NCBI GenBank assembly: GCA_045047305.1
Contig: JASFYO010000002.1
Location: 96,001 to 160,000 of the forward strand
Origin: Planctomycetota bacterium
GTDB taxonomy: Bacteria; Planctomycetota; UBA1135
DNA length: 64,000 nt
Direction: 5' to 3'
The position numbers were made by a program, and so were the translations under genes. Below, piece by piece: positions 36,731 through 59,858 of the stretch (position 1 is its first letter; each line of letters begins with the position of its first letter). The notes under the pieces were generated by a model that saw nothing but the letters and a program-made list of their open reading frames with translations, made no database searches and was not told the DNA's origin.

Positions 36731-37420
36731 CTATTCGGCGCTTGGCTCCCCCTCAGGGGAGGAAGATTCTGGTTGTTCAGTAGATTCCGGCTTCGGTTCA
36801 ACCGCAATCTGCTCGGCCGGGTTGGCCAGACGTCCGGCTTCGGGGAGATCATCTAGATCACGCAGGCCAAAGCGATCGAGGAAATCTTTGCTGGTGCCAT
36901 ATAAAAATGGACGTCCAGGCAAATCTGCGCGGCCGAGAATACGTACCAAGCGCAAATCCAACAGGTGGCGCAGGTGGGTTCCTGATTTCACACCGCGGAT
37001 GGCGTCGATATCAGCCTTAAGAACCGGCTGGCGGTAAGCCACGAGCGCCAAGACTTCGAGCCCGGCAGAGCCAAGACTCTCCTTCTGCGCAGTTTTACGC
37101 ACCGCTTGGAGCGAATCGGCCATATCCTCACTGGTCAGTAGGCGCCAGCTGCGGCCGGCTTGATGCAGCACCAAAGGAAGATTGCGCTCTTCCATCCAGT
37201 TTTCCAGTGCCGCCAAATGCGCTCGTGGGCTGAAGTGCTCCAGCTCCTCGAGCACCGCCTCCGGGGTGCATTCCTTGTCTGCGCCCTCAGCCTCGGCCTT
37301 GTTTGGGGTCGGATAGAGCACCTGCCGAATCCGATCGAGGTTGACGGCTTCAGGTGAGGAGAACAACAGCGCGAACAAAAGACGCAGCTTGTCGTCGAAA
37401 ATCTGTGGTTGCTTGTCCAC
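36731..37420 (-). CDS. scpB: SMC-ScpAB subunit ScpB
   Basis: LEVLALVAYRQPV.KADIDAIRGV, GR..LPGRPFLYGTS..FL.RFGL..L.DLP. GTG at 37420 is the likely start. Confidence 0.93.
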   Translation of the reverse strand: MDKQPQIFDDKLRLLFALLFSSPEAVNLDRIRQVLYPTPNKAEAEGADKECTPEAVLEELEHFSPRAHLAALENWMEERNLPLVLHQAGRSWRLLTSEDMADSLQAVRKTAQKESLGSAGLEVLALVAYRQPVLKADIDAIRGVKSGTHLRHLLDLRLVRILGRADLPGRPFLYGTSKDFLDRFGLRDLDDLPEAGRLANPAEQIAVEPKPESTEQPESSSPEGEPSAE

Positions 37421-37427
37421 AGTAGCT

Positions 37428-38342
37428 TCAGCGGGAGAACTCAAAGGCTTGGGTCGGGCCGGAGAATGGTGAAAGACTCGTGGAAACAGTATAGCGACGG
37501 GACATCTTCTCAAACCAGGCCCGGGCTTCAAGAGCGTCGATTGGCTGGTTTTTCAATTCTTCGAGCAGGATGGCGACGGGCGGAAGCTCGGTTTCAGGGT
37601 CCAATACTTCGGTGACAAGCCCTACGCGCCAACTGCGGTCGCCTTCCAGCTGGAGCGGTCCAATCACCTGGCCGACGCTTGGATTCTGAAGTTGCTCCCC
37701 CAACATGCCGGGGAGATCACGACTCACGGGTGGGTAGCTACCATCTGGGCTGGGGCCAGCCAAGAGGGACTCTTCCACCATCGATTGTGGACTGCGGCCG
37801 GCCTTCAGCCCCGAGGCCCAGGAGCGAGCTTGCGCCTGATCACCAGTGACAAACCAATACAGGCCTACGCGCCCACTTTGGCGAGCGTCCGCACGCAGAA
37901 CGATTTGATAAAGCAGGTTGTCTGCGAGGTTTTGGCGGTACAAGGGCTGCACTTCCCGCCACGAGGCATCGTGGCGGGCCAGCGCCCAGGCATCTGGATT
38001 TGTGTTGGCGCCGAGTTGGGCAACCAGACCCTGGGTGAACTGAGTAAAGGCTTGGTCGATTCGTGACTCAGGAACCGATAATTCAAGACGCTCCGCTTCC
38101 AGCCTTGCCATTTGCGTGCGTACCAAACTGCGGGTCAATTCGGCCGACTCCGCCGGAAATACGAACGCCATTTGCGCGACAAAGGCGCGCAAATTTAATC
38201 CCGCTCCTTGGACCGCTACCCCAGCAACGCTTTGGTTACGCTGGACGCGTGATGTCCGCGAGTTGGGGAGCTCGTGCGTCGGCCCAGCTTGGCATGAAAA
38301 CCCAAGGAGCAAAAGGCCGACAACTGCGAGGCGCGGCGTCAC
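37428..38342 (-). CDS. Putative lipoprotein, degenerate SurA/PrsA-like
   Basis: Lipobox-like LLGFSC, LEAERLELSVP..RID helical motif, parvulin-like GQVIGP. Confidence 0.55.
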   Translation of the reverse strand: MTPRLAVVGLLLLGFSCQAGPTHELPNSRTSRVQRNQSVAGVAVQGAGLNLRAFVAQMAFVFPAESAELTRSLVRTQMARLEAERLELSVPESRIDQAFTQFTQGLVAQLGANTNPDAWALARHDASWREVQPLYRQNLADNLLYQIVLRADARQSGRVGLYWFVTGDQAQARSWASGLKAGRSPQSMVEESLLAGPSPDGSYPPVSRDLPGMLGEQLQNPSVGQVIGPLQLEGDRSWRVGLVTEVLDPETELPPVAILLEELKNQPIDALEARAWFEKMSRRYTVSTSLSPFSGPTQAFEFSR

Positions 38343-39814
38343 TTGAAGCTGACGCTGCGCCTAACCTGAATACCGTGGCATGTCGGGCACTTCTTTTTCC
38401 GCTGACGTGCTCCATTCTGCGACACATCCATAATCTCGATATATCCACTTCCAGCACAAGTTTGGCAGAAAGTGAATTTAACCGCGATGACGTTGTAGTC
38501 TCCGGAGAACTCCGAGTAGTAAGCCAACATCCACTGGAATCGCGAGGTCACCGATGCACGGCGCCACCAATCTTCAGGGCTCACATCTCCAGCGCCACCG
38601 GATGCCGAACGACGCGTGGCCTGAATGTTATCGAGGTAACGCTTCATGCGATCCTCCATTTCCCGTTGCTGGTCTGACTTGCCGTCGTCCTTCTTTTCCT
38701 CTTCATCTTTGAGACCAACCGTGGCTCTTTCTGCACCCAGAATCCAAGTTCCGTCATTAAACCCTGCAGTATGTGCGGTTGGTGCGGTTTCGAGACGGGC
38801 GAGCCAACGCGCGTCAATGCTGCCGAGATCCAAATGAGAATCCATGTCCTTCAGCTCGATTAACAACTGCTGACGCACAAGCAAGGGCACCTCCGTCTCC
38901 AACCAGCTACTAAGCTGATCCATAGCCACTCCCTTCTCTAGCGACTTACGTTTAAGCACCTTGACCACCCGACTAAACCAGTGACGCTCAAGGTAGCGTG
39001 TCACCGCAGCATCGCGACGTTCTTCAAAACGATCGGCCAGCTGCAAGTACTCACCGCGTAAAGGTGAGTCGCTGTGCTCTTGATCAAACTCCGCAAGTAA
39101 GCCTTCAGCCACGGTGTAGCGATCACGGTGCATCATTTGTCGAACCATGTCGAGTTTTTGCGCCTCGACGCGGTTCGCAATCGTGTCCTCTAACTTTGCC
39201 AGCGCCCCTTCGATACGGTTCAGTAGGGCGGTATCGCCTTCAGCCGAGGCGATTTCTTGGCTCAAAAGATAATGCGCTTTCGCTTCATCCAGGGCGAACA
39301 TGACTTCGAGCTCTTGCGCAAAATCGAAGTGCGCAAAACGACTTGTGCTATCGATTTTTGGCACGCGCTCAGCGTAGTACTGCTCCGGAGTGAGAATGGT
39401 AGAAGCCTCCACCACCACTTCTTCTGGCGGAGCGGCCAGGCGTGACTTCGGCACTAAGGAAGTGGTGTCACGTACGCGAATTTCTAGGTTGCGGTTATCT
39501 TCGCGCAACAAGCGGCCAATGATTTCACGTCCGTTCTGCAACAACACGCGGTGGGCAGTGGTCATCGGAACTTGAGTTTGATTACGATAACCGAAGTTGT
39601 CGCGCAAACGCTCTGCTTCGCCAGGAAACAAGTCCCGCCAGGAGAGCTGATAACGACCACCATCCAGGGCGGTGGTTAACACGAGCCCGTCGAGATCATG
39701 CTCCACGATGGCACCCACCAACAGGCGGCCGTCACGCAGACGCACGATTTGATCTTCGCCATTTTGTTGAACGGCAGGAATCAGTAAAGAAGTAAGAAGT
39801 ATGGCGAGCATCAT
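38339..39814 (-). CDS. Exported hypothetical protein with C-terminal CxxC..CxxC zinc finger
   Basis: Signal peptide, two V.L..GR...G beta modules, helical middle, CQTCAGSG..CPTCHG. Confidence 0.75.
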   Translation of the reverse strand: MMLAILLTSLLIPAVQQNGEDQIVRLRDGRLLVGAIVEHDLDGLVLTTALDGGRYQLSWRDLFPGEAERLRDNFGYRNQTQVPMTTAHRVLLQNGREIIGRLLREDNRNLEIRVRDTTSLVPKSRLAAPPEEVVVEASTILTPEQYYAERVPKIDSTSRFAHFDFAQELEVMFALDEAKAHYLLSQEIASAEGDTALLNRIEGALAKLEDTIANRVEAQKLDMVRQMMHRDRYTVAEGLLAEFDQEHSDSPLRGEYLQLADRFEERRDAAVTRYLERHWFSRVVKVLKRKSLEKGVAMDQLSSWLETEVPLLVRQQLLIELKDMDSHLDLGSIDARWLARLETAPTAHTAGFNDGTWILGAERATVGLKDEEEKKDDGKSDQQREMEDRMKRYLDNIQATRRSASGGAGDVSPEDWWRRASVTSRFQWMLAYYSEFSGDYNVIAVKFTFCQTCAGSGYIEIMDVSQNGARQRKKKCPTCHGIQVRRSVSFK

Positions 39815-40248
39815 TTTTTCTGGCCCTCTAGGAAACGCGCGATGGGGACACTCCGCTCAAGCAGAAATGTCACACGAGTCAAAACACGATCTGGAGACTT
39901 GCGGTAGAAACGTAGTTCGGCGCGACGCAAAAAAGGATTATCCCCTTCGGGCCGCACAATGAGGTCGTAACGGTAAGCAGAAGCACCTGGTACCGCTTCT
40001 CCTTTAAGTTCCCGTAGACCGGTTGTTTTGCCTTTTTCGTCGACAATCCAAGCATTCTGGCGGACGTATTCCACCAAAGGCTCGATTGCCGGGGCAAGTT
40101 CAGCATGAACCCGAGCATCCTGCTCCAGATTACCACCGACTTGGAATAGCCCCAAGATTGCGGTGATGCCAAACATAAAAATGGCGATGGCAATCACCAC
40201 TTCGATTAGGGTAAAACCCTGCATAGGTTGCTTGACGTGCAATTTCAT
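39811..40248 (-). CDS. Prepilin-like minor subunit (GspI/PilV-like)
   Basis: Class III signal QG|FTLIEVVIA. 145 aa. Confidence 0.88.
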   Translation of the reverse strand: MKLHVKQPMQGFTLIEVVIAIAIFMFGITAILGLFQVGGNLEQDARVHAELAPAIEPLVEYVRQNAWIVDEKGKTTGLRELKGEAVPGASAYRYDLIVRPEGDNPFLRRAELRFYRKSPDRVLTRVTFLLERSVPIARFLEGQKK

Positions 40249-41168
40249 CGCAAACGCCTCCCCCCTGCAGAAACTGGGCTTTGACTACTGTAGCGCGAGG
40301 CAAAGAACACCTCACTGCGTGCCTTATGTTCCGCCGGCAAGCTGCCCCGCCGGCCGCGAGCAGTGATACTCAACGAAGGGAACTGGCCAGCCACGCTCAC
40401 CCATTCAGAATCTATCAACACCATGTCGGGCATGCGACTTGGAGCATTTCCGCGCAATAGCATGGTGGTGGGTTCCTTGTTGATTGCATGATCTAACAGG
40501 GGCGGATGCTTTCGTGCAGTTCCGGACACATGTTCCACATTGAGCTCTATGCTTGCAGGAAAGTGAAATGGCTGCCCAGCATCGACGCGAAACTTGGTCT
40601 TTTTCTCGCTGCCATCGTGGGCCACAAACTCCGCCCACAGCACACCATCCATTAGGACTAATCCGTTCCCGGAACGCAGCACTGCATTCGCAACACGCTT
40701 GTCCTGCAAAGGAGCCGATGGATCTTCCACCTTGGCGAAACGGACCAAGCGATAAATCTTACTGCCCGGCGCTTCCGGGACCATGCACCACATCACTTCA
40801 ACCGCAGCTTGAGCGGAAGGGTCGATCTCGGGCAGAGATGCGCCGTCGGCCAAAAAGCGCAAACGCGGCATGAAGGTTGAGGGTTGTCCTTCGGTAGCTG
40901 GTGGAATCTCCCATTCGTCTAAGACCATCCAGCCCCGGGCGCCCGTATGCATCGCGCGCAAGTCGCCACGGAATCGTTCGACGGTTGCAGCGTAAACCAA
41001 ATCCCCGCGCCCGCGGCGTTCCCCGGCACTCCAAAGGTTGAGCACGGAATCCATGATTTGAATGACGAATGCTGACAACACTCCAAACAGGAATAGCGCG
41101 AGCATCACCTCTAATAGGGTCATGCCACGTTTGCCGCGGGCCTTCAAAGAAAGCGTGGCCGCATTCAT
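40245..41168 (-). CDS. Prepilin-like minor subunit (GspJ/PilW-like)
   Basis: Class III signal RG|MTLLEVML. 307 aa. Confidence 0.88.
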   Translation of the reverse strand: MNAATLSLKARGKRGMTLLEVMLALFLFGVLSAFVIQIMDSVLNLWSAGERRGRGDLVYAATVERFRGDLRAMHTGARGWMVLDEWEIPPATEGQPSTFMPRLRFLADGASLPEIDPSAQAAVEVMWCMVPEAPGSKIYRLVRFAKVEDPSAPLQDKRVANAVLRSGNGLVLMDGVLWAEFVAHDGSEKKTKFRVDAGQPFHFPASIELNVEHVSGTARKHPPLLDHAINKEPTTMLLRGNAPSRMPDMVLIDSEWVSVAGQFPSLSITARGRRGSLPAEHKARSEVFFASRYSSQSPVSAGGRRLR

Positions 41169-44100
41169 TCTGTGATCTCCTGACTGCGCTCAATCCGAGT
41201 ATTGCCGAGATAATCGACTAGCAGATTGCGCAGGCGCGGCGCTTGAGTCCAGCCAACGGAGCGGAAGGTTGCAGGGTCAAACGCACCTGGCCCCCAATCG
41301 AACATCACCCGCAGGTCGAGGCGATCGCTGTAGAAGCCAAGCTTTTGATATCCGCCCTGGACAACATCTTTACCGCGCTGAAAAAGGGTTAAACCAGGCG
41401 TAGTGCGTGGGTCATCCTCCCAAGAAGCTGGCCCACTGCGTGCAAGAACACGAATGGAATGCGAGTTGTCCGGTAACTCTGCTTGGTATTGAATCCCGCG
41501 CCAGAATGCTTCCGGCTCATTGAATCCCAATTGCAGCCACGCACCGACACCACTGTCAGACTCAGGGACATAGTTATCCATCCAGCGATTGGGGAAACTG
41601 TAGACCAGGGTGCCTACCTGATGATTCGCCGGTTGAGTTCCAAAACGCCCGCGCAGAATGCCTTGCCCAACTTGACCTTCCGGACCGCGGCGTTCTCGCG
41701 GCATAGCCAATCCACCGCCAACACCACGCATGGGTGTATGCAGCAATTCCGAATCGATCAGAAGCATGCCGCTACGTCCGAAGCCTAATTGGTTTTGAAC
41801 TTGTATCGTCTCGGAATAGGAAGTGAGATTGCTATTGAGTACCGAGGAGGCGCGACTATCCATAAGGCGCACCGTTGCGCCGGTGCTGTGGGCGCGGACC
41901 TCAGTGCCAAGGAATCCCCGACCATTCGATGCAATGGTGAATTCGCCGTTGGTGGTATCGAGATCAGAGTAAGCGATGAGTTCGCCGTCGATATCTAGCA
42001 AGCCGCTAGCAGGGAGAATGCTTAGCCAGTCACCGGGTTGAGCATTCGGATCACTCACGCGGAATCCATCCTGATAATAATCGCGAGGATTTACCCGGAC
42101 CGTGGACATGGTGCCTTGCTGCAGGTCTTCGCGCAGGAAGAACGCTCCCCGGGCAGTACGCACACCAGTTCGTCCCTGACCACCGACTGCAGTAAAAGAT
42201 ACTTCATCCACATAGCCCTGCAGGTTTGGCGAACCGCCAGAAGCAGTGCCGCCTACGACCAAGTTACCAAAGTTACGTGGACGTTCATGGTTGGGGAACT
42301 TGCTTAGACGACTGAACTCACGGCGATCACCACCTCTTGGAAGCGTGGCAAACTCCCCTACAGTATGGCCGGTAAACGGAATGCCTGTCGAGGCATCAAA
42401 GGCGACATAATTCACCCCCAAACGCACCCGGGCCCCATCCGGCAACGGGTCGGTTGGCGTATTCACGGGATCGTGTGCCCAACTCACCTCAAACCAAAAT
42501 GGCAGGCTTTGTTCACCGGCTTGCATCACAGCAACGCGGTCGAAACGCCCAACGTAGCCATAACCCGAATCCACCAAGCCGTTCGGGAGCTTTTGCGTGT
42601 TAAACACAGGCACCATTTCTTCGCCAGCGGTATGCGCATGATCATAAGTCCCCATCACACCACGAAAATTCAAGTTGTAGGCATAAGCCTCGTTCGGGAA
42701 GCTAGTCGGCTTCTTATGGCTAGCAAGGCGATCGTCACGATCTTGAACGGGTTCACCTAGCCAGGTACGTCCAGGATTCGTAGGGTCCTGGGGGAGCCAG
42801 CTAGTGTTCATGCCGAGAGGCTCGGCAGCTGGATCGGGCAAGGAGAAATCCTCTTCCGCCAACGAGGAGTCAATGATTTCAGAAAAGGTGCGCGTTAAAT
42901 GATCCCAATTGTCACGCACAAAGTGTCCTTGAAAAATATGGTCGTAGCGAATCCACTCCAATTCCTGAGGCCGGCTTTTGCTCCCAAGTTGTACGTAGGC
43001 ACTGAACTCATCTGACCCAGGTTGATAAGTCAAATCAGATGCGCCGGAAGCATGAACCGAGATTGGAATCACGGTAATGTTCAATCCCTGAACCTGGTTT
43101 AGGAAACGCCCATCAGTGAACTGAACGTCTCCGGAGTACTCCACTAGGTGAGTGATTCCTGTGGTACTAAGACTGGTATTCCGAGCGCCATCCCGTGGTG
43201 CATTGACAAGCCCGGGCAAATCTTGAACATTGCGCCGAGCGATGGTCAGGACATCGCCGGTACGAGCGGAATATTCAATAATCTCGACGCCGCCAATCGG
43301 GCTATCGTCCTCGGTATTGGTCGCTGGCACTGGGCCAGAAATCAGATAGGCATAACCCCCATCCGACTGAAAAGCACCACTGTAGAAGGTGTCTCCAGGA
43401 ATCCGATACATAGGTGCAAGCTCTAGAGGGCCCACGTAAGAGGCATTGATGCCCTTGCCTAAGTTCGGGATCACGAAACCTTGATTGGTTAGCGCGGTGA
43501 TGTCTTCTCCACCAACGAAAACACTTGCCATCGACCAAGGTCCAACATCACCGGAAAGGCTTTTACCGCCAGGGGGAATGTTGCCTTGAATCAGGGCAGA
43601 GTAGCCGTACAACTCCACCGCACATCCGGCTGGGTGTTTGGTGTCGATTGCAAAGGCGTCTCCATCTGATTTCTCACGAATGGCACGTCCTCCGAAGTAC
43701 TGCCCTGGAACTAAATCTGCATTAAATGATGTCTGGGTCTTCGATGTGTACTCAATAATCTCTGGCCCAATCCGGAGCACCCCGCGGTCAGGGAATCCAA
43801 CGGTAGATTCCACGCTAATGACATTGCCTGTGGTAGAGGCATCGTATTCGTTTAGCGCTGCAGTGAGATAAGTGAAGCCATCAATATCGCCACGCGGAAC
43901 TCCGTCGATGAGCACCTGGACACCGCGGTGGGAGAAATCGCGAATCAAAACCGATAGATGGAACCAACGGTCAGCCAAAGGGTATTCCGCGGGATCAATG
44001 CGCACGATGATTTCTTCCGGCATACCTTGCAGATCATAATCGTCCGGCCCGGCGGTGCCCTGCACCCGCACCACCAACTCCCCCTGCTCCATTGCGGCAG

Positions 44101-46066
44101 TCACACGGTTACGGTCGTTTTCAAAACCAGCTAGCTCGAACAAAGTACCAGCCTGTAAATCTTCGCTAAAAAACCAAGCTTGAAAGCAAAGAGGTTCTAC
44201 ATCGCTAACATTCGAAACACCAGCTACGGTCCATTCCTCAAATAGGGGGCTGTATGGGCCCGTTTGAGGAATGTAACGCCCTAGCGGCGATGGGTCGAAA
44301 TCAAAGTGTTGTACCCGGCCGAGACCATTGAAAGCAAACTGGTCGGACTCTCGCGCTGGCATCGGGATGACAGCGGAAGTTTCAGGGTCCTTCTCCGGAA
44401 CCATACGTCCCGTTTCTTCCCATGTGCCGAGTTGAAGTGTTAAGCCATTCTCGGACGCGTCAAAATCTCCGGTGAGTGATCCCATGGAAACTGGCAGCGT
44501 CACCACACCATGCATGCCTCGCCCCCACCGGGTTGCGTCTTCTAACGTTTCTTGATCGCCAAAAAGAGACAACAGTTCACCAGCAGGGATGGCCGCCACA
44601 TTTTGTTTGAACGATGCGCGTGCAAGCGTGCGACCTAAACGAGAACGTACGGCTGCGTTGATGCGCTGGGTGTAATGATTACCACTGCGGTAACCAAACG
44701 AAGTCGTGCTTTGAAGCAGGCTACCGTTGTTGGGATCCATACTGTTTAGGTACAGCGCCCAGGAATCCGCATCGGAAATAGCGCCATCATCAGCTAACGG
44801 CTTCAACACGCGGTCCCACAAATCTTGAGGTCCATGCAACGGCCGGGCCTGCACCACACGGGCTGCAAAGCGTCGAGCCTCAGCAGGGTTTACCCAATCG
44901 CGACTACGTCCAGCGTTCGCTGGGGCAGCGCCATTTGCAGCCTGACCGGCAAAGGAAATAGGAGGGCTTCCATTAAAGGCAACACCAAGCGCAAGAGCTT
45001 CTACGATTTCTGGTCGACACGCATTGATGTCAATCGGCTCGCGACGCATGGGATAGACGCGAGTGGTGAGTGCATCAAAATCGGTGGGAAGCGGTGCCGC
45101 CAAACGCAAGGTTCCACCACCTGCGGCAATCACTAAGCGGTCAAGCGGATCTCCAAACTCTGGCAAAAAACGAACCACCGTCCCCATGTTGAAGTAGCTG
45201 GCTTCATCCACCCGCACTCGATTGGGATGCTCTGGATCGATCCGACGTACCGTCCAACTAGCTGGCTCCCAAATATCGGCGCCGTAAGCACCCGAACGCA
45301 ACACGCATTGGTCCTGCAAGATTTGCAGGTCGGTTGCCGGTAACAAACTATCCGCTCCGCCGCCTAAATCGAAGGCGAAGGCGTCGGCAAAGAACTCTGG
45401 CGGCACGTGCCCCTCCGCTTTAAAGTTCGACAAAACTAAAGTTTGCACCCGGGGGTCTTGCACCAAATAACCCTCCAAGAAACGTAATTGATCTAAATCT
45501 TCCGGCTCTGATCCATCGGGAACCAAGTCGGTAAACGCGGTTTTCGTTTTACTCAGGTACTGAATCCACGAGGTCCCCACCAAGATAAAGCCTTGCTCTG
45601 GGAATCCTGCTGTGGAATTCACCGGAATGGTACCGGCGCGATAGCTCACGTCGGTTTTGAGGAAGCAAGGATGCAGTAGGTTTTGCAACAACATCACTGG
45701 CGCTGTGGCCAAAGACACTTTGGCCTGCATACTCTCAATCTCTGCACCCCAAGATTCCGTTGAGCGCTCCCAAGCGGAGCCCAGAGCTTGCGGCATAGGG
45801 CCGATAGTGCTGCCATCCCACTCCGCAGCATCGTCCCATAACGGAGTTGGGTCAGAGAAAGGATGGGAAAGCGATTGCTGGAATGCTGTAGCGAGGGAGG
45901 CAGACTCCACCGCGACGCGGGCGGTCGAGCGGCTAAAAGTTTCACTCGACGCCTCGGAACGCATGCGACTTGCAAACAGGAACGGGACGCCCATGGAGAA
46001 CAACAGCGCCAAAGCCATCAGCACCACGATCAAGGCAGCGCCATCGCGATTCGTTATCTTTCTCAT
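41165..46066 (-). CDS. Giant GspK/PilX-like pilin with LamG-like and repeated beta modules
   Basis: RDG|AALIVVLMALALL lacks Glu+5 as in GspK/PilX. GspK-like landmarks IESMQAKVSL and PIDINA. 1633 aa. Confidence 0.8.
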   Translation of the reverse strand: MRKITNRDGAALIVVLMALALLFSMGVPFLFASRMRSEASSETFSRSTARVAVESASLATAFQQSLSHPFSDPTPLWDDAAEWDGSTIGPMPQALGSAWERSTESWGAEIESMQAKVSLATAPVMLLQNLLHPCFLKTDVSYRAGTIPVNSTAGFPEQGFILVGTSWIQYLSKTKTAFTDLVPDGSEPEDLDQLRFLEGYLVQDPRVQTLVLSNFKAEGHVPPEFFADAFAFDLGGGADSLLPATDLQILQDQCVLRSGAYGADIWEPASWTVRRIDPEHPNRVRVDEASYFNMGTVVRFLPEFGDPLDRLVIAAGGGTLRLAAPLPTDFDALTTRVYPMRREPIDINACRPEIVEALALGVAFNGSPPISFAGQAANGAAPANAGRSRDWVNPAEARRFAARVVQARPLHGPQDLWDRVLKPLADDGAISDADSWALYLNSMDPNNGSLLQSTTSFGYRSGNHYTQRINAAVRSRLGRTLARASFKQNVAAIPAGELLSLFGDQETLEDATRWGRGMHGVVTLPVSMGSLTGDFDASENGLTLQLGTWEETGRMVPEKDPETSAVIPMPARESDQFAFNGLGRVQHFDFDPSPLGRYIPQTGPYSPLFEEWTVAGVSNVSDVEPLCFQAWFFSEDLQAGTLFELAGFENDRNRVTAAMEQGELVVRVQGTAGPDDYDLQGMPEEIIVRIDPAEYPLADRWFHLSVLIRDFSHRGVQVLIDGVPRGDIDGFTYLTAALNEYDASTTGNVISVESTVGFPDRGVLRIGPEIIEYTSKTQTSFNADLVPGQYFGGRAIREKSDGDAFAIDTKHPAGCAVELYGYSALIQGNIPPGGKSLSGDVGPWSMASVFVGGEDITALTNQGFVIPNLGKGINASYVGPLELAPMYRIPGDTFYSGAFQSDGGYAYLISGPVPATNTEDDSPIGGVEIIEYSARTGDVLTIARRNVQDLPGLVNAPRDGARNTSLSTTGITHLVEYSGDVQFTDGRFLNQVQGLNITVIPISVHASGASDLTYQPGSDEFSAYVQLGSKSRPQELEWIRYDHIFQGHFVRDNWDHLTRTFSEIIDSSLAEEDFSLPDPAAEPLGMNTSWLPQDPTNPGRTWLGEPVQDRDDRLASHKKPTSFPNEAYAYNLNFRGVMGTYDHAHTAGEEMVPVFNTQKLPNGLVDSGYGYVGRFDRVAVMQAGEQSLPFWFEVSWAHDPVNTPTDPLPDGARVRLGVNYVAFDASTGIPFTGHTVGEFATLPRGGDRREFSRLSKFPNHERPRNFGNLVVGGTASGGSPNLQGYVDEVSFTAVGGQGRTGVRTARGAFFLREDLQQGTMSTVRVNPRDYYQDGFRVSDPNAQPGDWLSILPASGLLDIDGELIAYSDLDTTNGEFTIASNGRGFLGTEVRAHSTGATVRLMDSRASSVLNSNLTSYSETIQVQNQLGFGRSGMLLIDSELLHTPMRGVGGGLAMPRERRGPEGQVGQGILRGRFGTQPANHQVGTLVYSFPNRWMDNYVPESDSGVGAWLQLGFNEPEAFWRGIQYQAELPDNSHSIRVLARSGPASWEDDPRTTPGLTLFQRGKDVVQGGYQKLGFYSDRLDLRVMFDWGPGAFDPATFRSVGWTQAPRLRNLLVDYLGNTRIERSQEITE

Positions 46067-47100: not shown

Positions 47101-47686
47101 CTTCGGTCTCAAACAGACCATCTGCGCCTGCGGAGACTAGTTGGAAGCCACTTGGTTCATAGAAACTTCCGGTGCGCTCGCTGCGACCCGGTGAGACATT
47201 TTGCTCTTCATAGTATTCATCTTCGCCAGCCTGCACCGTGGCGCCAGTTTTGTTGCTGTAGTGCAAGCTCTCAAAGTAAACAATAGGATTGCCCCACTCA
47301 TCGCCGATTTCAAAGAGTTCACGCGATTGCAGAATGGTTAAGTTACGCGTAGTTTCATCGCCGTCAGTGTTAACCAGCCAATCCTGTGCAGGCCGTTCAC
47401 CGGAATATTCCGGGTCAAACAGAGCGAGGAACAAAGCCTCACTATGCGAGTTAAAGCGGTTGCTTGTAGTCCCTTTTGGCAGGCGATCATCGGGGTACTC
47501 GCCTTCCATGGTGCGGTAGCTTTGCAACATGATGGCCAAAGACTGCATCCGAGCTTTTGCTGCCCGCTCTTTGCTTTTACTAAACATGCTCCCTCCGACT
47601 CCTGCGAAAGCAGCCGCCAAAATACCGATGATGACCATGACGATCATCAACTCCATGAGAGTAAATCCTTGTTGTTTGGTTTTCAT
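47069..47686 (-). CDS. GspG-like (pseudo)pilin
   Basis: QG|FTLMELMIVMVIIGILAA, GEYP, DEWGNP, LVSAGADG..DD. Confidence 0.9.
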   Translation of the reverse strand: MKTKQQGFTLMELMIVMVIIGILAAAFAGVGGSMFSKSKERAAKARMQSLAIMLQSYRTMEGEYPDDRLPKGTTSNRFNSHSEALFLALFDPEYSGERPAQDWLVNTDGDETTRNLTILQSRELFEIGDEWGNPIVYFESLHYSNKTGATVQAGEDEYYEEQNVSPGRSERTGSFYEPSGFQLVSAGADGLFETEDDLFSYTGDQ

Positions 47687-50376
47687 TGGACTGCGTAAAT
47701 CAGTTCCACGTTATCTAGAGAAGCATCCACTGGCAAAGCAAGCGCGGTACGCACTAACAAGCCAGAAGCCATGACACCCGTTGGATTGCGCAAGCTACTC
47801 ACGGCTTCGGAGTAAATCACTTCGTCGTTGAAGCGAACCGTAAGAATAGGTTGCTTGGGTTCCCGATTCACATGGAAGGAGATGCGTGCCGTCTCGCCCT
47901 CCGCAAGCCGATAGGCCGTTTGACCATTTTCAGGGCGCGTGCCGCGCATCATGCTCCACCCGATTGCGCCTTCACGATCACGGATGACGCGGAAAGACCA
48001 GGTTTCTTTATTTCGGTTCTGCAATGCAATATAGGCAGCGGCGTCGCCACGATGCCCATTCTCGATATGCAGATCTGCAACAAAATCACGGAAGGCCAAG
48101 CCTGGAACCGTGTAGTAAGCGCTAGTTTCGGCAGCTCCGGAATGCTCCCCTTGAATCAATAAAGACTGATTCTCTAAACGCGGCTCCACTCCGGCACGGG
48201 CACCAGTCTGTGTATCCCAGCCTGGCCGCAAACGTCGTCCATCAAAAGAATCTACCCAGCGACGCATTTTGGCATGACTTAAAACACGGTCCTGCCAAGT
48301 TGCCGCATAGATGAACTGCAAGTCATCTTCACTCTCGCGCAGAGTATCTTGCAGATATGCAAACTCAGCAACGGCTGCATCTAAATCACCTTCTTGGTAA
48401 AGCACCATACCCTTGGCGTTTCGCGCAGCATTAAGGCTGGGATCCATAGACAAAGCCTGGTCGAATGCAGACATCGCGTCTTCAAGAAGATTCCGATGAA
48501 GTAAATTCAAACCATGACGCATCACCACTCCAGCCCACGCGGGAGCATCATTGGTATTGCGAACCCAATCCGGGAAGGCCTCTTCCAAGCTACGGAAAGC
48601 GACTTCAGCACGCCCGTAGGATGCTTCGGTGTAAAGCAAGTCTGCGAACTCAGCAAGAATTCCGGCGCAAACTGGAGCAGTACGCACCAAGTCTTGCAGG
48701 CCAAGCCGGGCGCCTTCTAAATCGCCATCGCGTGCAGCCCAATGCACTTGCAGATAGCGGCTGTAGAGGTGACGTGGAGAAAGTTCAAGCGCGCTTGCCA
48801 ATGCTTCTTGGGCCGCATCCGTCTCACCGATACGATCCAACCAAAAAGCCTGTGCGGAAAGAGCAGGTGCAGCATCGAATGGAGTCGCGGCTGCAGAGGC
48901 ACGTAAATCGCGAATAACCTCACCGGCAGCTCCACCATCCGCTGCTTCTGCGATACCGCGTAGGTAAAGCAAACCAGCATTCGCGCCGAAGTTGTCGATG
49001 GCAGTCCCTGCAAGCGCCCGCGCTCCAGAGAAGTCACCAGACAAGTAGGTCGAGGCAATCAATCCGGACTGTGCCCGCATTGCAGCGACTTTATTATTGC
49101 CTGCAGCACGTTCTGCATTAAGGAAAGCCTGGTTCGCTTCACTCCAATTCCCAGAGCGCATGGAAGCTTCACCTAAGGCAACGGCATTGCGTAGGGCGCT
49201 CTTAGAATTGCGTTGGCCTTGCATCCCCATGGCGCGCGTAAGAAGCTGACGGCCCTCCTCCACTCGACCGAGGTCAAGCATTAAGAGGCCTAACTCCATC
49301 GGAGCATTCGCATCCCCGGATGCGAGGTCGACCGCTGCACGAAACTGGACCTCAGAATCCGCATCCAAGCCGATGCGACGTAGGATGACACCCATACGTA
49401 CCCGCGGTCCTGCAGAACGCGCAAAGCGTCCTTTCTCAACGGTTAATCCGAAGTCCGGCAAGGTCTCGCCTAGATTCTCACCTGCGAGCATCGCGTAGAG
49501 GGCAAACGCGCGGTCGAGGTCAAATGTCCGTTCCCAAACCTCACCGAGCAACATCCAATTGGTGACATCGTCGGGGGCAAGACGCACGGCATCGCGCGCA
49601 AGCTCATCCGCGTATCCAAAAGCAATCGGCTCGGCTAGACCTTGATCCAACAGCCAATGCACAAACACACCAAGGTCTTGTACACGGGCGGCAGACATAC
49701 GCGTCCGCTGATCACGCACGCCAAGTTCAATCTGATTGTGCAAGGTATCGGCGAATCCGAATCCTTCGTATTCCTCGGCATCGAACTCAAGCTCAGCGCG
49801 TTCCCGGCCAGTGTAAGGGTCTACCTGCTTAAAGCGCAGGGTGTCGCCCTTGACGTAATCAAAACGACCATCGCCCAGGAGGTAACCGTAAAAGGTTGCC
49901 AACGGATTCAGCCGAACCCAATCGTAAACCTTGCGGTACTGATCGTCTTGATCAGAAAAAGTGTCGGCAACCGATTGATCCAAGCCAAGCAGGTCGGTTC
50001 CATTGGAGCCTGCGTCCACCAAATCATCTAATCCACCGAGAATGGTTGGATTTGCGGCAAAGAGGTGTTCACTCCAATAAGAGGCCCCGCTGTCTGGGAT
50101 TGGCGGTGGCATCAACACACCGAGAGGAGCCAAACTTGGGTCCGGCAGCTGCAGCGCATCGAGTGGCTCATCGGCGCTTGGTCGACGCAACAGATCACGC
50201 CGCGAGCCTTGCGCCGGAAGGGCCACAACTGGATTGGAAAGTGGCATTTGGAAGGCTTCTAAAGCTTTTCCGCCAGAGACACGTGGCGCACGTGGCGCCT
50301 CCTGTTGCATGAGGTTGTAAGTCATCAAGCTCAAGATGAGCAGAACAACAACCAGAATGATGGGTTCACGCTTCAT
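47683..50376 (-). CDS. Membrane-anchored TPR protein with C-terminal beta-sandwich
   Basis: N-terminal TM, Pro-rich linker, many TPR-like repeats, about 185-aa beta-rich C-terminus. Confidence 0.8.
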   Translation of the reverse strand: MKREPIILVVVLLILSLMTYNLMQQEAPRAPRVSGGKALEAFQMPLSNPVVALPAQGSRRDLLRRPSADEPLDALQLPDPSLAPLGVLMPPPIPDSGASYWSEHLFAANPTILGGLDDLVDAGSNGTDLLGLDQSVADTFSDQDDQYRKVYDWVRLNPLATFYGYLLGDGRFDYVKGDTLRFKQVDPYTGRERAELEFDAEEYEGFGFADTLHNQIELGVRDQRTRMSAARVQDLGVFVHWLLDQGLAEPIAFGYADELARDAVRLAPDDVTNWMLLGEVWERTFDLDRAFALYAMLAGENLGETLPDFGLTVEKGRFARSAGPRVRMGVILRRIGLDADSEVQFRAAVDLASGDANAPMELGLLMLDLGRVEEGRQLLTRAMGMQGQRNSKSALRNAVALGEASMRSGNWSEANQAFLNAERAAGNNKVAAMRAQSGLIASTYLSGDFSGARALAGTAIDNFGANAGLLYLRGIAEAADGGAAGEVIRDLRASAAATPFDAAPALSAQAFWLDRIGETDAAQEALASALELSPRHLYSRYLQVHWAARDGDLEGARLGLQDLVRTAPVCAGILAEFADLLYTEASYGRAEVAFRSLEEAFPDWVRNTNDAPAWAGVVMRHGLNLLHRNLLEDAMSAFDQALSMDPSLNAARNAKGMVLYQEGDLDAAVAEFAYLQDTLRESEDDLQFIYAATWQDRVLSHAKMRRWVDSFDGRRLRPGWDTQTGARAGVEPRLENQSLLIQGEHSGAAETSAYYTVPGLAFRDFVADLHIENGHRGDAAAYIALQNRNKETWSFRVIRDREGAIGWSMMRGTRPENGQTAYRLAEGETARISFHVNREPKQPILTVRFNDEVIYSEAVSSLRNPTGVMASGLLVRTALALPVDASLDNVELIYAVQ

Positions 50377-51155
50377 TGGAGATCCTCCCCGACAGCAATC
50401 TGCGGCATGACGCCAACCCCGAATTCCAACACGATGCGTTGTTCCATACGTTTTGCGTTACGTGGCAAGACCTCAAATGCAGTCAGCCCTAGTGGATTTC
50501 CACTTGCTTGTTCCGCAGCTAACTTACGCAAAAAAGGAGTTGCGCTCACTCGTTTGAAGACAATCTCCATGGTTACAGGAGTGATGTCTAGTGGCGATGC
50601 ATGGCGCCCACTACGACGCCTTCTCTTTTGTGAAATTCGGATTTTATCGACCTTGGAGGCTCCGTGATCCACCGCCATGTGAACCACACGATCCACCACG
50701 TCGAGGCCATGAAGAATGCGTTCGATCTGTTGTGGTTGCGAAGGCGAAACCGGAGGTAGACCTAAGGAGTCATCCACTTCACAGTTGTGACGCAAGGACC
50801 ATCCAATGATTTCGTCGCGCAGTTCCCCTGTCAGCGAAATGTAATGCTGAGCAGCTGGGGTTCCATTTGGAATCCGAAACCGTTCTCGAAACGGTGGCAG
50901 AGACATGCGTCCGAGCTCAGCGTTGCGTTCCTGCAAGGACGCTAGGCGCTTCTCCAAGGTGGCCACTTGAGCCGCTCCGTACATACTGCTCGAGTTCATC
51001 TTGCGCCGCGTGCTCGAGATGGAACTTGAGCTGCGCCGAAAATCCTCTTTCGACCCACTGCTGGTGAAGGCAAGCAGGATGAAGAACGCCACCACTCCGC
51101 CGGCAAGGCCAAGAATGAAGCGACGGTGGGTTTGCCAGAATGCGTCGAAATTCAC
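50373..51155 (-). CDS. PilO/GspM-like alignment protein
   Basis: One TM, short coiled coil and a ferredoxin-like alpha/beta pattern, directly after PilMN. Confidence 0.55.
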   Translation of the reverse strand: MNFDAFWQTHRRFILGLAGGVVAFFILLAFTSSGSKEDFRRSSSSISSTRRKMNSSSMYGAAQVATLEKRLASLQERNAELGRMSLPPFRERFRIPNGTPAAQHYISLTGELRDEIIGWSLRHNCEVDDSLGLPPVSPSQPQQIERILHGLDVVDRVVHMAVDHGASKVDKIRISQKRRRRSGRHASPLDITPVTMEIVFKRVSATPFLRKLAAEQASGNPLGLTAFEVLPRNAKRMEQRIVLEFGVGVMPQIAVGEDLQ

Positions 51156-52813
51156 TGATTATCCTCCGCGTCGAATTCTTCCCCTTCAGGCTCAGGCTCA
51201 TTCATTAACTGGGTCCGAAAACTCCACTCAAAACTTTTTCCTCGTGGATTCGAACTCGGTTGCATGTCGCGGTCAGCATCGGCTAAGAGAGCGCCCATGC
51301 CACCGGCGAAAACACCAAAAGCCTGACTTGCGGCGCGCACGTCGTCTTCTGCGCGTCCGGCAACTTCAAACACTGGGATTCGGCGCCCCTCGTGTCCGAA
51401 CTCCTTACCGTCGGCTAGGTCCACCCGAATCGATTCAACCCACAAACTTTCTGGCAGAGAACGTTCCATGTACTGCAACAGGGCGTTGGTGCCAAATGAA
51501 ATCGCAAAGCGCGATTCCAAGTCGTTATACAACAGGCTTTCCAAACGCACTTGCTCTAACAATTCGTTCGCGCGGGTGTTGCTACTTTCGATGCGTTTCT
51601 TACTAGCTTGCATCGCCTTCGATGATTTGCCTGCATCCTCAGCCAAACCGCCCATGATGATGAAATTTACCACCACAAAAGCAACCGCTGCCATCCCCAT
51701 CAAGATGTTGAAGATTGTGCGCTCGGAGAACTCTTTCTTCGCGCGCGCCGCAGCGGTGAGAATTTCCAAGGCATAGAGCTCAGAATCTGCTGCACCGAGC
51801 CCCAAACCCAGGGCCACAGTGGCACCAGGTCCGTCAGCTTCCAACTGCTCGATTTCGTCTTCTGGCAAAGATTCCACGTCGACCATTTCGACAGGATTCC
51901 ACACCTGAACAGGAACCCGCATGCGAGCTTCCAGGAATTCACTAAGACCGTTGGTATTAGCGCCACCTCCGGTGAGCAAAACGCGGTCCAAAGTCAACTC
52001 ACTCAAGCGCGCTTGCGCCTTGCATAAGGTCACCACTCCGCCTAGCAGAGTCGGCAAGCTCTCATACATTGGCATAAGAGGCCGGGTAACACGCTCGGCA
52101 TCGCTACTAAGACGTTCGCCGAGAGCGAGACGCAAATCCAAGTGCTTATGGATCAAACTGCGCGCACGTTCGCTATCAATCTTTAGTTGACCGGCAAGAG
52201 TGCTGTCGCGTTTTTCTAAGCTAGTCGATACAGAGCGCGCAAAATAAAGCTCGGTGCCATGGACCAACGCCAAATCCAAAGTCCCTGCGCCAATGCTAGC
52301 AATCAAAGTAGTCGATGCCTCGTGATCGCCGAGCACTAGGTATGCGTTGTAGAGGGCAACCGCATTCGGAGTGAATGCTTTGACACTCAAGCCACCAAGA
52401 TCGTTCATCGTGGACTCCAGCAAATCCTCGCGCACCAAGCTGAGTAGCATGGTGTCCTCGTCGTCGAGGCCTTTTGGCACCGGCAAGAGGTTGTAGGAAG
52501 ATGCCAAACTGGAACCCGACCGCGATTCCACCTCGCGAATTTCAAACTCCATCAGGCGCTCAAGTCGCCAATCCTCCACCGGAGGCACAGGCAAGTAACG
52601 CATCATCAAGTCCGAGCCAGTCAAACCAAGCTCGACTTGCCCTAACTTCTTCGCAGCACCAACAAGCACGGCACGGGCGGCTTCAACAGGAGATTCCTTG
52701 CCCTCTGGCGCCGCTGCCATGTAACGAGTTAAACGATGATGGCCTTTACTTGCTTCGAAAGCAGCTAAACGCACCAAGGAGGTACCAAGGTCAATTCCAC
52801 ATCCTTTGGCCAT
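51152..52813 (-). CDS. pilM: PilM actin-like protein fused to a PilN-like domain
   Basis: GIDLGTSLVRLA, VLLTGGGA, ALGLGL, then LEILT (INLLP-like), TM, coiled coil and LPESLWVESI. Confidence 0.82.
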   Translation of the reverse strand: MAKGCGIDLGTSLVRLAAFEASKGHHRLTRYMAAAPEGKESPVEAARAVLVGAAKKLGQVELGLTGSDLMMRYLPVPPVEDWRLERLMEFEIREVESRSGSSLASSYNLLPVPKGLDDEDTMLLSLVREDLLESTMNDLGGLSVKAFTPNAVALYNAYLVLGDHEASTTLIASIGAGTLDLALVHGTELYFARSVSTSLEKRDSTLAGQLKIDSERARSLIHKHLDLRLALGERLSSDAERVTRPLMPMYESLPTLLGGVVTLCKAQARLSELTLDRVLLTGGGANTNGLSEFLEARMRVPVQVWNPVEMVDVESLPEDEIEQLEADGPGATVALGLGLGAADSELYALEILTAAARAKKEFSERTIFNILMGMAAVAFVVVNFIIMGGLAEDAGKSSKAMQASKKRIESSNTRANELLEQVRLESLLYNDLESRFAISFGTNALLQYMERSLPESLWVESIRVDLADGKEFGHEGRRIPVFEVAGRAEDDVRAASQAFGVFAGGMGALLADADRDMQPSSNPRGKSFEWSFRTQLMNEPEPEGEEFDAEDNQ

Positions 52814-54561
52814 TAGTTTGCCTCCTGTTGAATCCAGCCCGAAAGCACTGGATAAGTACTCGCGAGTGCGTTTTTCACCCGGCTGCGATAATTCTTCGCC
52901 TTTTCCGCTTCCGCCGCGCGGAGTTCATCAAGGCTGGATTCTAATAGGCCAGATAACTCCAACGATTGACCTTCGATATTCGTTCCTGGAAAGCGGGAAG
53001 CTAGTTCCAAAACCTGTTGATTCAATCCATCGAGTTGGCCGATGGCGCCGACAAACAAAGCACCAGAAGCACGTAGTTGCAAGTTTGAGAATTCGGCACG
53101 CCCACTTTCAATCGCGTTGCGCGAAAGCACCAGTGCCTCTTGCACCTTGAGGTCGTCGAGCGGAAGTTCGCGCAATAAACGAGCAGTGGAGTTCAGCAAC
53201 AAGCGCACATCGCCGGAGCGAGCGGCACGACTGATTTCTTGGGTCAAGCGAGCGGCATCGGTGATGACTTCACGTAAATCCCAAAGCAACTCCAACGAGC
53301 TGTCAACGGCCAACCGAGCTTCCACTTGTCCACCAATCACCGTGCTTGGTTTTGCGGGGCGTAAAAGGAAGCGGCTAGCCCCTCCTCCAATCAACAAACC
53401 TGGGCTGTTGTCGACGCGAACACCACGTGCATTCCCAACAGGACCACCGTCTCCAAGGATGAGAAATGCACCGGCTTCATTCAGGGTGTCGGTGGCGGCA
53501 ACTGCCAACTCGGCCTTGCCAGAAGCGGTAAAGGTCATGCCATTGGCGCTGGGCGCCCATGAGCCACCCTGGCCGTGTATCACCAATAAATCGCCCAAAG
53601 GTCCGGTTAGAAACAGGTTGGCGCCACTGCTAATAGCGCTACCCGAAGGGGTCGACACTTTGCTCGGAGCACCCTCGGCAGCTTCTACTGTCAAAGCGGA
53701 GAGCGAACCACTACCCTCCAAAACCAAGCTTAGCTGAAACCATTTGGCCTCAGCAGGAAGGGCCAAAGTAGAGGTTCCAGAGGACAGGTCCTGCGCCTCC
53801 CACCGTCCGATGACAACTTCTTGGTCTTCATCTTCACCCCAACTGATGACCGGACGAACGGAAAGATCACTGACGCTGGCTGAAATCGTTAGCGCACCGT
53901 CTTGCATTGGAAAGGAACGCGACAATCGGATTTCATTACGCCCTGAGGCATTTTGAACCCTTCCATCGGCCAGGGTCACACCTTTCGGCAGGGCCCAGGC
54001 TTCGGCCTCGTCAAAGGTGCCGTAATTTCCGATAGCGTCGAGACTTGCTACTGCGGAACCACCTTCCGAAGAACCGCGGCCCGGCTGATCGACTTCGGCA
54101 TCGCTGCCGCCAAGAGTCCACCATGCAGCACCTCCTCCAGCGAGAATGAGAACAGCACCTAGAACCATAGTCAGCGGGCCACCTTTCTTTTTACCAGACA
54201 TCGCTGCCTCGCGAGCGCGGCGGTGGACGTCGTCGTCGGCGGCATCTCCAGCAGAGGAAATCGAGGCGGAGGATGTATCTAGGTAACGCAAAGAGCAATC
54301 ACCGAGGCGCATCTCGCTACCTGGAAACCACTCTCCGTCATTCACTTGGACGCCGCCGGCCCAAGTGCCATTAGTCGAACCCAAATCGCGGAAGCGGAGT
54401 GTGCCGCCTGCGTCAATTTGGAGTTCAAGATGTCGGCCCGACACGGAATCCAACGCCAAAACCAAATCGTTGGTCTTGGCGCGGCCGATGCTGTGTGTGC
54501 CCGGGCCGAGGTCTAGGACCTTACCCGTGTCGGGACCACTTAGGATCTCAATTTGAACCAT
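52813..54561 (-). CDS. FHA-domain single-pass membrane protein
   Basis: IGRAKTND, VSGRH, DLGSTNGT FHA motifs, then TM and a large extracytoplasmic part. ATG at 54561. Confidence 0.85.
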   Translation of the reverse strand: MVQIEILSGPDTGKVLDLGPGTHSIGRAKTNDLVLALDSVSGRHLELQIDAGGTLRFRDLGSTNGTWAGGVQVNDGEWFPGSEMRLGDCSLRYLDTSSASISSAGDAADDDVHRRAREAAMSGKKKGGPLTMVLGAVLILAGGGAAWWTLGGSDAEVDQPGRGSSEGGSAVASLDAIGNYGTFDEAEAWALPKGVTLADGRVQNASGRNEIRLSRSFPMQDGALTISASVSDLSVRPVISWGEDEDQEVVIGRWEAQDLSSGTSTLALPAEAKWFQLSLVLEGSGSLSALTVEAAEGAPSKVSTPSGSAISSGANLFLTGPLGDLLVIHGQGGSWAPSANGMTFTASGKAELAVAATDTLNEAGAFLILGDGGPVGNARGVRVDNSPGLLIGGGASRFLLRPAKPSTVIGGQVEARLAVDSSLELLWDLREVITDAARLTQEISRAARSGDVRLLLNSTARLLRELPLDDLKVQEALVLSRNAIESGRAEFSNLQLRASGALFVGAIGQLDGLNQQVLELASRFPGTNIEGQSLELSGLLESSLDELRAAEAEKAKNYRSRVKNALASTYPVLSGWIQQEAN

Positions 54562-59187: not shown

Positions 59188-59858
59188 GCGTGTAAAGATG
59201 GCAAGCCCCCTTGCGCCATCCAACCGCCACGTCGGTCGGCGAGGATGCGCTCCCAAGGGGCCACCGACCAAGGATAGCCGGATTCTGTGGAGAGCGTTTC
59301 GAGATAAATACGAACCTCTTGCAGTGACTCCGGGCGCAGGATGCGACGCTCCTTAGCGCTGGCTAAATACAAATCGACTTCGATGGAACTGCCCCAACGC
59401 TCGCCATCCGCGGGAAGCAGCTGGCCAGCCGCAAGGTCCCTCTCCAGTACGGCATCCAAGAAGGCCGCGGCTGAGGCCAATACCAAGCTCAAGGTTGCAC
59501 GCTGCGGATAACGCTGAATCCCTTGGCAATAGCCGGCAGCCAGGTCCAGGGCATCGGCATGTTCGGTCAGTTGCGGCCAGTATGGGAAATCACGGCATTG
59601 CGCTGGGCGCTCCGCGTAAATCGAGCAATGGGCATCTCCATCTAAGAGAGAACAACTTCCATCTGCATTTTCCAAGATGGACAAACGATTGCCGACACGA
59701 CGCACAAAGCGTTGCACGAATGGGTCTACTTGGACTCCGAAGGCGGCCGCCATCGCCGGTAAATCGGATTCTTCAAACCAAACTTGCCCATGCCCGACGC
59801 GGCAACAATTTCCACAGCGATGACAATCGAAGGAAAACGCCGGTGCCTTCTCGCTCAT
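59184..59858 (-). CDS. YkgJ family cysteine-cluster (CxxCxxCC) protein
   Basis: FDCHRCGNCC, C.LL..CSIYAERPAQCRDFP. Confidence 0.88.
   Translation of the reverse strand: MSEKAPAFSFDCHRCGNCCRVGHGQVWFEESDLPAMAAAFGVQVDPFVQRFVRRVGNRLSILENADGSCSLLDGDAHCSIYAERPAQCRDFPYWPQLTEHADALDLAAGYCQGIQRYPQRATLSLVLASAAAFLDAVLERDLAAGQLLPADGERWGSSIEVDLYLASAKERRILRPESLQEVRIYLETLSTESGYPWSVAPWERILADRRGGWMAQGGLPSLHA

Follow-up and report, generated by a model that had tools for sequence, protein, structure and literature searches.

A 64,000 nt stretch of a Planctomycetota genome (assembly GCA_045047305.1, contig JASFYO010000002.1, positions 96,001 to 160,000; here called the window) carries a twelve-gene operon headed by an FHA protein, followed by PilM-, PilN- and PilO-like proteins, five pilins and accessory proteins. 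This operon is a type IV filament machine that is real, widely conserved and, by the tests run, outside the named classes with which we compared it. We suggest, from sequence and with a probability of about 0.45, that the filament is retractable and ends in a giant lectin-like tip, with which large glycans or coated material would be caught and then brought in through a secretin pair encoded elsewhere in the genome.

Organization of the operon

The window comes from contig C2 of genome G000, which is 2.83 Mb with a completeness of 87.7% (G, C, L and f denote our genomes, contigs, loci and families). The twelve co-oriented open reading frames (ORFs) are encoded on the minus strand, from 36731 to 54561, or to 54732 with the longest FHA ORF.

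52813..54561 (longest ORF start 54732), minus strand: FHA protein with a transmembrane (TM) helix; Pfam FHA
51152..52813, minus strand: PilM-PilN fusion (PilMN); PilM and PilN profile matches
50373..51155, minus strand: PilO-like protein; N-terminal TM helix, PilO profile match
47683..50376, minus strand: 897-aa tetratricopeptide repeat (TPR) protein with a likely PilP-like N-terminus; TPR Pfams
47069..47686, minus strand: G, major pilin of GspG type; GspG 5wda is the best PDB profile match
46063..47100 (start 47100 or 47121), minus strand: H-type minor pilin with LamG; N_methyl, Laminin_G_3
41165..46066, minus strand: K, giant GspK-type tip pilin, 1633 aa; GspK matches of orthologs, model
40245..41168, minus strand: J-type minor pilin with a phage-tail-like C-terminal repeat; N_methyl, profile matches
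39811..40248, minus strand: I-type minor pilin; N_methyl, weak gspI and pilV matches
38339..39814, minus strand: Zn protein, 491 aa, probably exported; model, CxxC..CxxC
37428..38342, minus strand: PrsA/SurA-type parvulin foldase, likely a lipoprotein; profile matches
36731..37420, minus strand: scpB; PF04079, 3.1e-39

A preliminary description, made from the letters of the window, reported twelve co-oriented genes with overlaps of 1-4 nt at nine of the eleven junctions, and re-measurement gave the same figures. The overlap is 1 nt for FHA/PilMN and 4 nt for PilMN/PilO, PilO/TPR, TPR/G, H/K, K/J, J/I, I/Zn and Zn/lipoprotein. The G/H overlap is 32-53 nt, set by the choice of start; the lipoprotein and scpB genes overlap by 104 nt with the longest ORF, or leave a gap of 7 nt with the GTG at 37420. 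GC content is flat over the region. The gene labels given in that description stand: Pfam recognizes FHA, PilM and the N-methyl motifs of G, H, J and I, and profiles match PilM plus PilN, and PilO. Rfam gave no match within the window or in four partner loci.

Conservation across Planctomycetota

PilMN was found in 198 of 201 genomes of the class. We fetched 40 class loci with a limit of 20 kb, picked for long contigs and spanning all 8 families. From FHA through the lipoprotein gene, all eleven genes are in the same order in 40/40, with one gene in pieces in four loci. The conservation profiles were built from the same 40 loci, and this count is therefore partly circular; in a second profile round the weak members gained strong scores. 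The gene scpB comes next in 20/40, and many of the remaining loci end at the 20 kb limit. Mean protein identity among conserved-order loci is 25-37%, and a conserved order at this divergence excludes chance. Correlations of pairwise identity between genes (0.54-0.87) were discarded as an interaction signal, as they reflect kinship.

The K profile matches 173 of 251 genomes of the phylum. Outside the class, 78 of 236 genomes gave no K match, and K was not found in several families (e.g. 0/13 in f11). Another 40 loci from outside the class were hand-picked among the better K matches. The nine-gene core, FHA through I, is in order in 26 of these, the contig ends after K in two, five hold a partial set and seven hold K alone. 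The Zn gene is present in 19/40. In f31 and f56 K has moved away, and PilMN and Zn are still approximately 9 kb apart. A search of 30 chosen genomes with the Zn profile gave matches in 19, and none in f29, f54, f76, f81 and f86. Across the class and wider-phylum loci the accessory genes accompany the pilins, which supports the preliminary description.

The named relatives are metagenome-assembled genomes of Planctomycetota and Saltatorellus ferox Poly30, in which the fetched DNA (L151) shows an unchanged order from FHA through K, where it ends. We found no description of the operon in the literature, mostly open-access; the supplements of 10.1101/817700 may list such genes. In the available parts of 10.64898/2026.10.26.761892 and PMC11481906 no discussion of pilins, secretins or FHA was found.

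The inner-membrane alignment complex

The FHA protein consists of a cytoplasmic FHA domain, a single TM helix, a periplasmic domain resembling carbohydrate-binding modules (CBMs) and a helical C-terminus. The phosphothreonine-binding residues G26, R27, S41, H44 and N64 are invariant in 37 alignment rows, and the pattern is present in 39/40 loci. In profile searches, residues 178-331 gave weak matches to 4d0q (8.8e-5), 8ag9 (3e-4) and 8zdo (2.2e-5); the periplasmic matches are CBMs and a phage fibre. Two FHA domains are frequent in relatives outside the class.

The PilMN profile matches PilM (3jc8_Ma, 8.4e-27) and PilN (3jc8_Na, 1.8e-4). No GspL is among its 13 PDB matches, where PilM, MreB and FtsA were matched instead. 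In the PilM tree PilMN forms a clade of its own, apart from a GspL-like clade, in a tree that leaves the branching order of the clades open. The match to Amuc_1101_fam (4.7e-23; 81.8 of 650 bits) is under the cut-off for membership in that family. The PilO-like protein has an N-terminal TM helix and a profile match to PilO (3jc8_Oa, E 0.0079). The PilM, PilN and PilO of a type IVa pilus (T4aP) are all represented, with PilM and PilN fused.

The TPR protein has a TM helix, a proline-rich linker, a small beta domain, a TPR array and a C-terminal lectin-like domain, the latter with weak atlas leads to GH59_C and a sialidase-like CBM at 0.94. Its N-terminal ~130 aa are a separate ORF after pilO in three loci of other families (L094, L096 and L097), with RDPF or RNPF, which we take to be a PilP-type motif. 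An RDxF-like motif occurs in 21/40 loci, and the three stand-alone ORFs have no Pfam match. By position after pilO and by this motif, the N-terminus is likely a PilP.

In several families the operon is immediately preceded by a gene for an FHA-GAF-sigma54 activator (L189:6435-8477, L192:5312-7195 and L194:8539-10947), and a homolog in G000 is found on C3, adjoining a Ser/Thr kinase. Control of the operon by this activator was considered and dropped: a sigma-54 motif precedes FHA in only 1/41 loci, and such control is therefore not supported.

Pilins, giant tip and accessory proteins

The five pilins have class III prepilin helices, with the N_methyl motif in G, H, J and I according to Pfam and a GspK-type helix without E5 in K. 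Among solved structures the G profile matches GspG 5wda best (7.7e-17), and a further matching stretch covers the C-terminal loop. The match of G to TIGR01710 (8.8e-11; 42 of 88.85 bits) is under the curated cut-off. The major pilin is not of the PilA type found in T4aP, since its profile is closest to GspG including the C-terminal loop. H matches Laminin_G_3 (1.2e-7) and gspH (1.3e-5), and I has weak matches to gspI and pilV.

K of the window has no noteworthy family match by itself. Of 13 orthologs, 11 match GspK NF037980, at best 2.2e-12 and with at most 47 of 130 bits, which is under the cut-off. A model of residues 495-1633 (pLDDT 87.8, pTM 0.87) is nearly all beta and contains a discontinuous LamG fold built from distant segments. 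The best fold match is domain 4 of the arabinanase AbnA (5hon; Z 14.7, rmsd 2.8, 166 aligned). Next, at approximately 1 Z unit less, come laminin-G, neurexin and CBM40 domains. Neurotoxin binding domains in the fold lists were set aside, being due to the common LamG fold only. A homolog search gave hypothetical names only, the atlas clusters are unnamed, and Foldseek matches are limited to small parts of K. A short repeat is common to K and J, and the J profile matches phage tail-tip structures (8vjh, 1.6e-7; 8rk3, 9.7e-5). In one genome the giant K gene occurs as two tandem copies of ~1300 and 1340 aa near PilMN (G370:C10:20473-28465).

The model of the Zn protein (pLDDT 87.5) has two Sm/Hfq-like barrels, TPR-like helices and a C-terminal four-cysteine ribbon. 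Foldseek gave Hfq at E ~0.03, with no significant match, and TPR-like fold matches reach Z 9.6. The CxxC..CxxC is present in 39/40 loci. On its profile matches to PrsA (1.7e-17) and SurA (3.9e-17), the product of 37428..38342 is assigned as a PrsA/SurA-type parvulin foldase; a crude lipobox pattern was seen in 20/38.

The preliminary description spoke of four unexplained accessory subunits. They are indeed conserved, and fewer are now unexplained: the lipoprotein is of PrsA/SurA type, the TPR protein likely begins with PilP, and scpB, a conserved neighbour, probably does not belong to the machine.

The candidate motor

Genes for an ATPase, platform, secretin and prepilin peptidase had been reported absent from the window, and family searches of the whole genome, made without an ORF-by-ORF scan of the window, place none there. 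These searches found five PilB/GspE, one PilT, four platforms, six secretins and one PilD in G000, such that the genome has the ATPase, platform, peptidase and secretin of a type IV filament, outside the operon locus.

Contig C3 of G000 encodes a pilB-pilT-pilB-pilC cluster without pilin, PilM or secretin, and its PilT is above the cut-off. C3-type ATPases and canonical ATPases form separate clades. Four relatives (G126, G023, G007 and G231) have a canonical pilT-pilB-pilC adjoining pilD besides the C3-type cluster, and G126 also has a canonical block from pilM to the secretin. At both of these sites, the flanking genes of relatives are direct neighbours in G000 (C5:47548-50089 and 68894-71480), as after a clean deletion, and a pilin-like leftover remains. 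As this adjacency lies inside C5, the canonical pilus was lost in G000, not missed by assembly.

In the family set of 41 genomes (69-92% complete), a canonical PilM query matched 35, the best hit always being the operon PilMN (best 3e-19), with two weak second hits. Exactly one PilT is present in 40/41, and it has the pilB-pilT-pilB-pilC setting in 15/15 loci fetched. Two platform genes, one of them beside PilT, were found in G028, G029, G038 and G439, and only the one beside PilT in G051, at a threshold that misses weak platforms. A PilC search gave matches in 121/121 genomes and no linkage with the operon. The C3 cluster (G000:C3:52665-56563, L183; L228-L242) is preceded at pilB1 by 1-3 lipoprotein-like genes (~350-400 aa) and followed at pilC by a histidine kinase in 15/15 family loci.

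G000 also has a type II secretion system (T2SS), divided between C21 (core D-E-F-G-H-I-J), C2 (a GspK-like gene) and C36 (L/M-like genes); we infer the L label from layout and tree. We examined if the operon completes the C21 system, and this is rejected on the K- and L/M-like genes elsewhere. A short secretin of 451 aa precedes the GspK-like gene, away from the C21 core (G000:C2:81598-84615, L187). Contigs C35 and C90 each have their own ATPase, platform and secretin. With the canonical pilus lost, the T2SS self-supplied and the single PilT in the C3 cluster, pilB-pilT-pilB-pilC is by elimination the likely motor of the operon.

The candidate channel

On C5 of G000 (8041-21051, L182) two TPR-bearing lipoprotein secretins, A and B, flank genes for a TPR protein, an Sm-TPR protein, ExbB and two ExbD. 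The secretins match Amuc_1098_fam (9e-22 and 5e-27; 76.9 and 94.3 of 750 bits) under the cut-off. In L182 a decarboxylase takes the position of a phosphoesterase-like TPR protein (TxP[SA]H) found in 11 other loci. The two long lipoproteins encoded next to K (L086 and L087) were inspected and are not secretins.

Co-occurrence was tallied by hand in genomes G201-G436, counting at least two secretin A matches as a pair and a K match of E at most 1e-40 as strong. The pair is present in 112/119 genomes with strong K, 17/39 with weak K and 9/78 without K. In the family, secretin B is present in 41/41 genomes and at least two secretin matches in 38/41. The block is near the operon in seven families. 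In G269, G381 and G395 it precedes the FHA operon in the same orientation, in G281 and G231 the two are divergent with ~5 kb between them, and in G232 and G417 they are no more than ~25 kb apart. The distance to PilMN is 12-25 kb in G223, G427, G344, G254 and G296, and that to K is ~2 kb in G227. The gene rsmE stands between both blocks in G395, G232 and G417, and adjoins FHA in the window. We consider the assignment of the C3 motor and the C5 secretins as partners of the operon to be probable.

Comparison with known systems

The operon resembles the T4aP of Myxococcus in PilM, PilN and PilO homology, in an M-N-O-P-like order, in HIJK-type minor pilins and in its presumed PilB/PilT/PilC partner, split over several loci. 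It differs in the PilM-PilN fusion, in a PilP-like segment that is membrane-anchored and fused to TPR, in a GspG-type major pilin, in two PilB and in two TPR-bearing lipoprotein secretins; PilY1 is missing from the operon, which has the giant K instead. With the T2SS (Pul/Gsp) it shares the GspG-type major pilin, the GspK-type tip, an L-like M-N fusion and a G-H-(K)-J-I set. Unlike the T2SS, the order is G-H-K-J-I, K is approximately five times longer, the cytoplasmic domain is of PilM type, the locus lacks D, E and F, PilT is a likely part and a separate T2SS coexists.

The MUL2 locus of Akkermansia (Amuc_1098-1102) offers the best named family for the PVC-type PilM-like protein, and the C5 secretins weakly resemble Amuc_1098_fam. 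However, all matches are under cut-off, a paralogous PilMN before secretin A is closer, and MUL2 as far as described in PMC13174399 has no giant K, FHA or Zn protein. The Verru_Chthon cassette (TIGR02596-TIGR02600) is a PVC pilin-like cassette with one very large member as well. Weak N-terminal matches are all that links the operon to its proteins A-D: the giant K matches protein A at the N-terminal helix in 1/13 orthologs (1.8e-4), and K of the window not at all. The Kil system of Myxococcus likewise combines a type IV filament with FHA proteins and is encoded in two loci, but it is of Tad type (PMC8460266), whereas the parts of the operon are of PilM/O and GspG/K type. No Flp pilin, TadB/C or CpaB match was found among 14 scanned proteins. 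By the tests run, the operon does not classify as T2SS, T4aP, Tad, MUL2 or Verru_Chthon cassette.

The preliminary description called the operon a hybrid T4P/T2SS-like machine. It is a non-canonical filament operon with T2SS-type major and tip pilins and a T4P-type PilM, as stated there; the word hybrid is weakened. In part it owes its appeal to nomenclature, since in PulL, too, PilM and PilN are fused and T2SS and T4aP have HIJK pilins in common (PMC10191384).

Proposed function and alternatives

We propose the following mechanism. The operon would supply the inner-membrane alignment complex and all five pilins, which PilD, encoded on C5, would process. I, J and K would prime the tip, and H may join it to the GspG-type polymer. 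The C3 ATPases and PilC would extend and retract the filament, which would exit via the C5 secretin pair, with PilMN, PilO and the PilP-like start of the TPR protein as a putative bridge between motor and secretin. The foldase may assist folding of the large beta-rich subunits, and the FHA protein could read a phosphothreonine signal and gate activity. The giant tip would capture large glycans or glycan-coated material and import it to the periplasm, with ExbB/ExbD possibly helping the cargo through the secretin.

Sugar-binding-type beta folds are seen in four products, H, K, FHA and the TPR protein, the matches of the latter two being weak. These folds, together with Amuc_1101 as the closest named PilM family, support a glycan cargo, as the MUL2 locus has been linked to mucin attachment and uptake (PMC13174399; PMC12418764). 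Among the functions named in the preliminary description (adhesion, polysaccharide capture and contact with prey), polysaccharide capture has fold-level, indirect support. If the partners are assigned correctly, a glycan-type cargo is near to even odds, or somewhat short of them; this and the role of ExbB/ExbD in passage through the secretin are the least certain parts.

Several observations weigh against the import of glycans by this filament. Contacts between proteins are also made by LamG and CBM-like folds, and laminin, neurexin and agrin domains are within ~1 Z unit of the glycan-binding fold matches to K; the matches of the FHA and TPR domains are weak. The operon shows no glycosidase, and the enzyme of the secretin block is not a polysaccharide sulfatase, as it has TxP[SA]H instead of C/SxPxR. 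The family genomes are incomplete. The complete C35 and C90 systems could use PilT, and in G007 the C3-type pilC is not beside its ATPases. The secretin block is unlinked to the operon in G000 and in every class genome where both could be placed (G005, G007, G025, G029, G031 and G083), and also in G260 and G300, and kin are not independent in the counts of secretins with K. A second PilMN-O-P(FN3)-like set directly precedes secretin A in G306 and G249, and in part in G207 and G395 (L204:1254-4891, L207:1538-5200 and L220:14736-17484). It matches Amuc_1101 better than the operon PilMN does (1.1e-78 vs 4.7e-23), and secretin A may therefore belong to it; the set was not found in G000.

The filament could alternatively be a second, dedicated T2SS-like machine, in which a short periplasmic GspG filament pushes specific large proteins out via the secretin pair and the giant K, TPR and Sm domains recognise the cargo. 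The GspG-type major pilin, the GspK-type tip, the two foldase genes downstream and the PulL architecture of the PilM-PilN fusion (PMC10191384) fit such a machine. However, PilMN gave PilM-type matches without GspL and stands apart from GspL-like proteins, a separate T2SS is already present, a compact tip of 1,100 residues looks ill-suited to a piston, and the sole unassigned motor has PilT, which is absent from T2SS (PMC6668835); we regard secretion as unlikely. PilT, by elimination, would equally suit a filament for surface contact, that is adhesion, crawling or prey and particle contact, gated by FHA like the myxobacterial Kil. The adhesin-like LamG, the phage-tail-tip repeats and the intact FHA are in line with contact, as is the crawling of Saltatorellus, in which T4P genes have been suggested to be involved (10.1101/817700). 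Nevertheless, the operon is kept in genomes of 1.8-2.5 Mb without a canonical pilus, Kil is of Tad type (PMC8460266) and the operon is not, and the link with the ExbB/ExbD block is left unexplained, which makes a contact filament rather unlikely.

A DNA-uptake pilus would account for the retained retraction ATPase and for a helix-hairpin-helix-like segment at residues ~345-415 of K. That segment matches the ordinary GspK domain, and no competence gene was recognised in the annotated neighbourhoods, where ComEC and ComEA were not searched for; DNA uptake is thus quite improbable. Least of all do we expect a cargo-free structural machine that joins both membranes or aids shape change or division, even though PilMN is nearly universal in the class, scpB and chaperone genes adjoin and other planctomycetes have been described with press-stud contacts between membranes (PMC5394234). 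A tether would not need all the pilins and an elaborate tip that is conserved, and the 78 phylum genomes in which K was not found speak against it.

Neighbouring genes

Behind scpB the window encodes a 600-aa membrane-anchored protein without Pfam match (34862-36664), found at this position in 9 class loci, which we presume to be SurA/PpiD-like. A protein with Wzy_C (O-antigen ligase-like) and TPR converges on the operon (32881-34746) and could glycosylate the pilins. A Ser/Thr kinase approximately 5 kb from the FHA gene (59855-60862) is a possible source of the phosphothreonine signal. A TPR and peptidase-MA protein is encoded at 57814-59271, and a similar Sm-TPR-peptidase gene is located directly before K in L086 and L087.

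Significance

Import of large polymers by planctomycetes has been described as unknown (PMC11131199, PMC5394234). The operon would be a concrete, widely conserved gene set for polymer import; it is carried mostly by uncultured planctomycete lineages, with Saltatorellus ferox (L151) as a cultured carrier. Published dextran-binding fibres are from Planctopirus and Gemmata, whereas S. ferox is the named carrier here, and T4P genes including PilB and PilT have been reported for Saltatorellota (10.1101/817700). The operon points to a type IV filament that joins a GspG-type polymer with PilT and possibly an ExbB/ExbD motor, a combination held by no type IV filament in the compared parts of the literature. 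We speculate, with more doubt than conviction, that it is half of an ancestral import engine of planctomycetes, in which an ATP-driven retractable filament tipped by the giant lectin-like K, a two-gene secretin, TPR scaffolds and a proton-driven ExbB/ExbD motor haul intact macromolecules over the outer membrane. If true, this engine would be a secretin-based alternative to TonB-dependent uptake.

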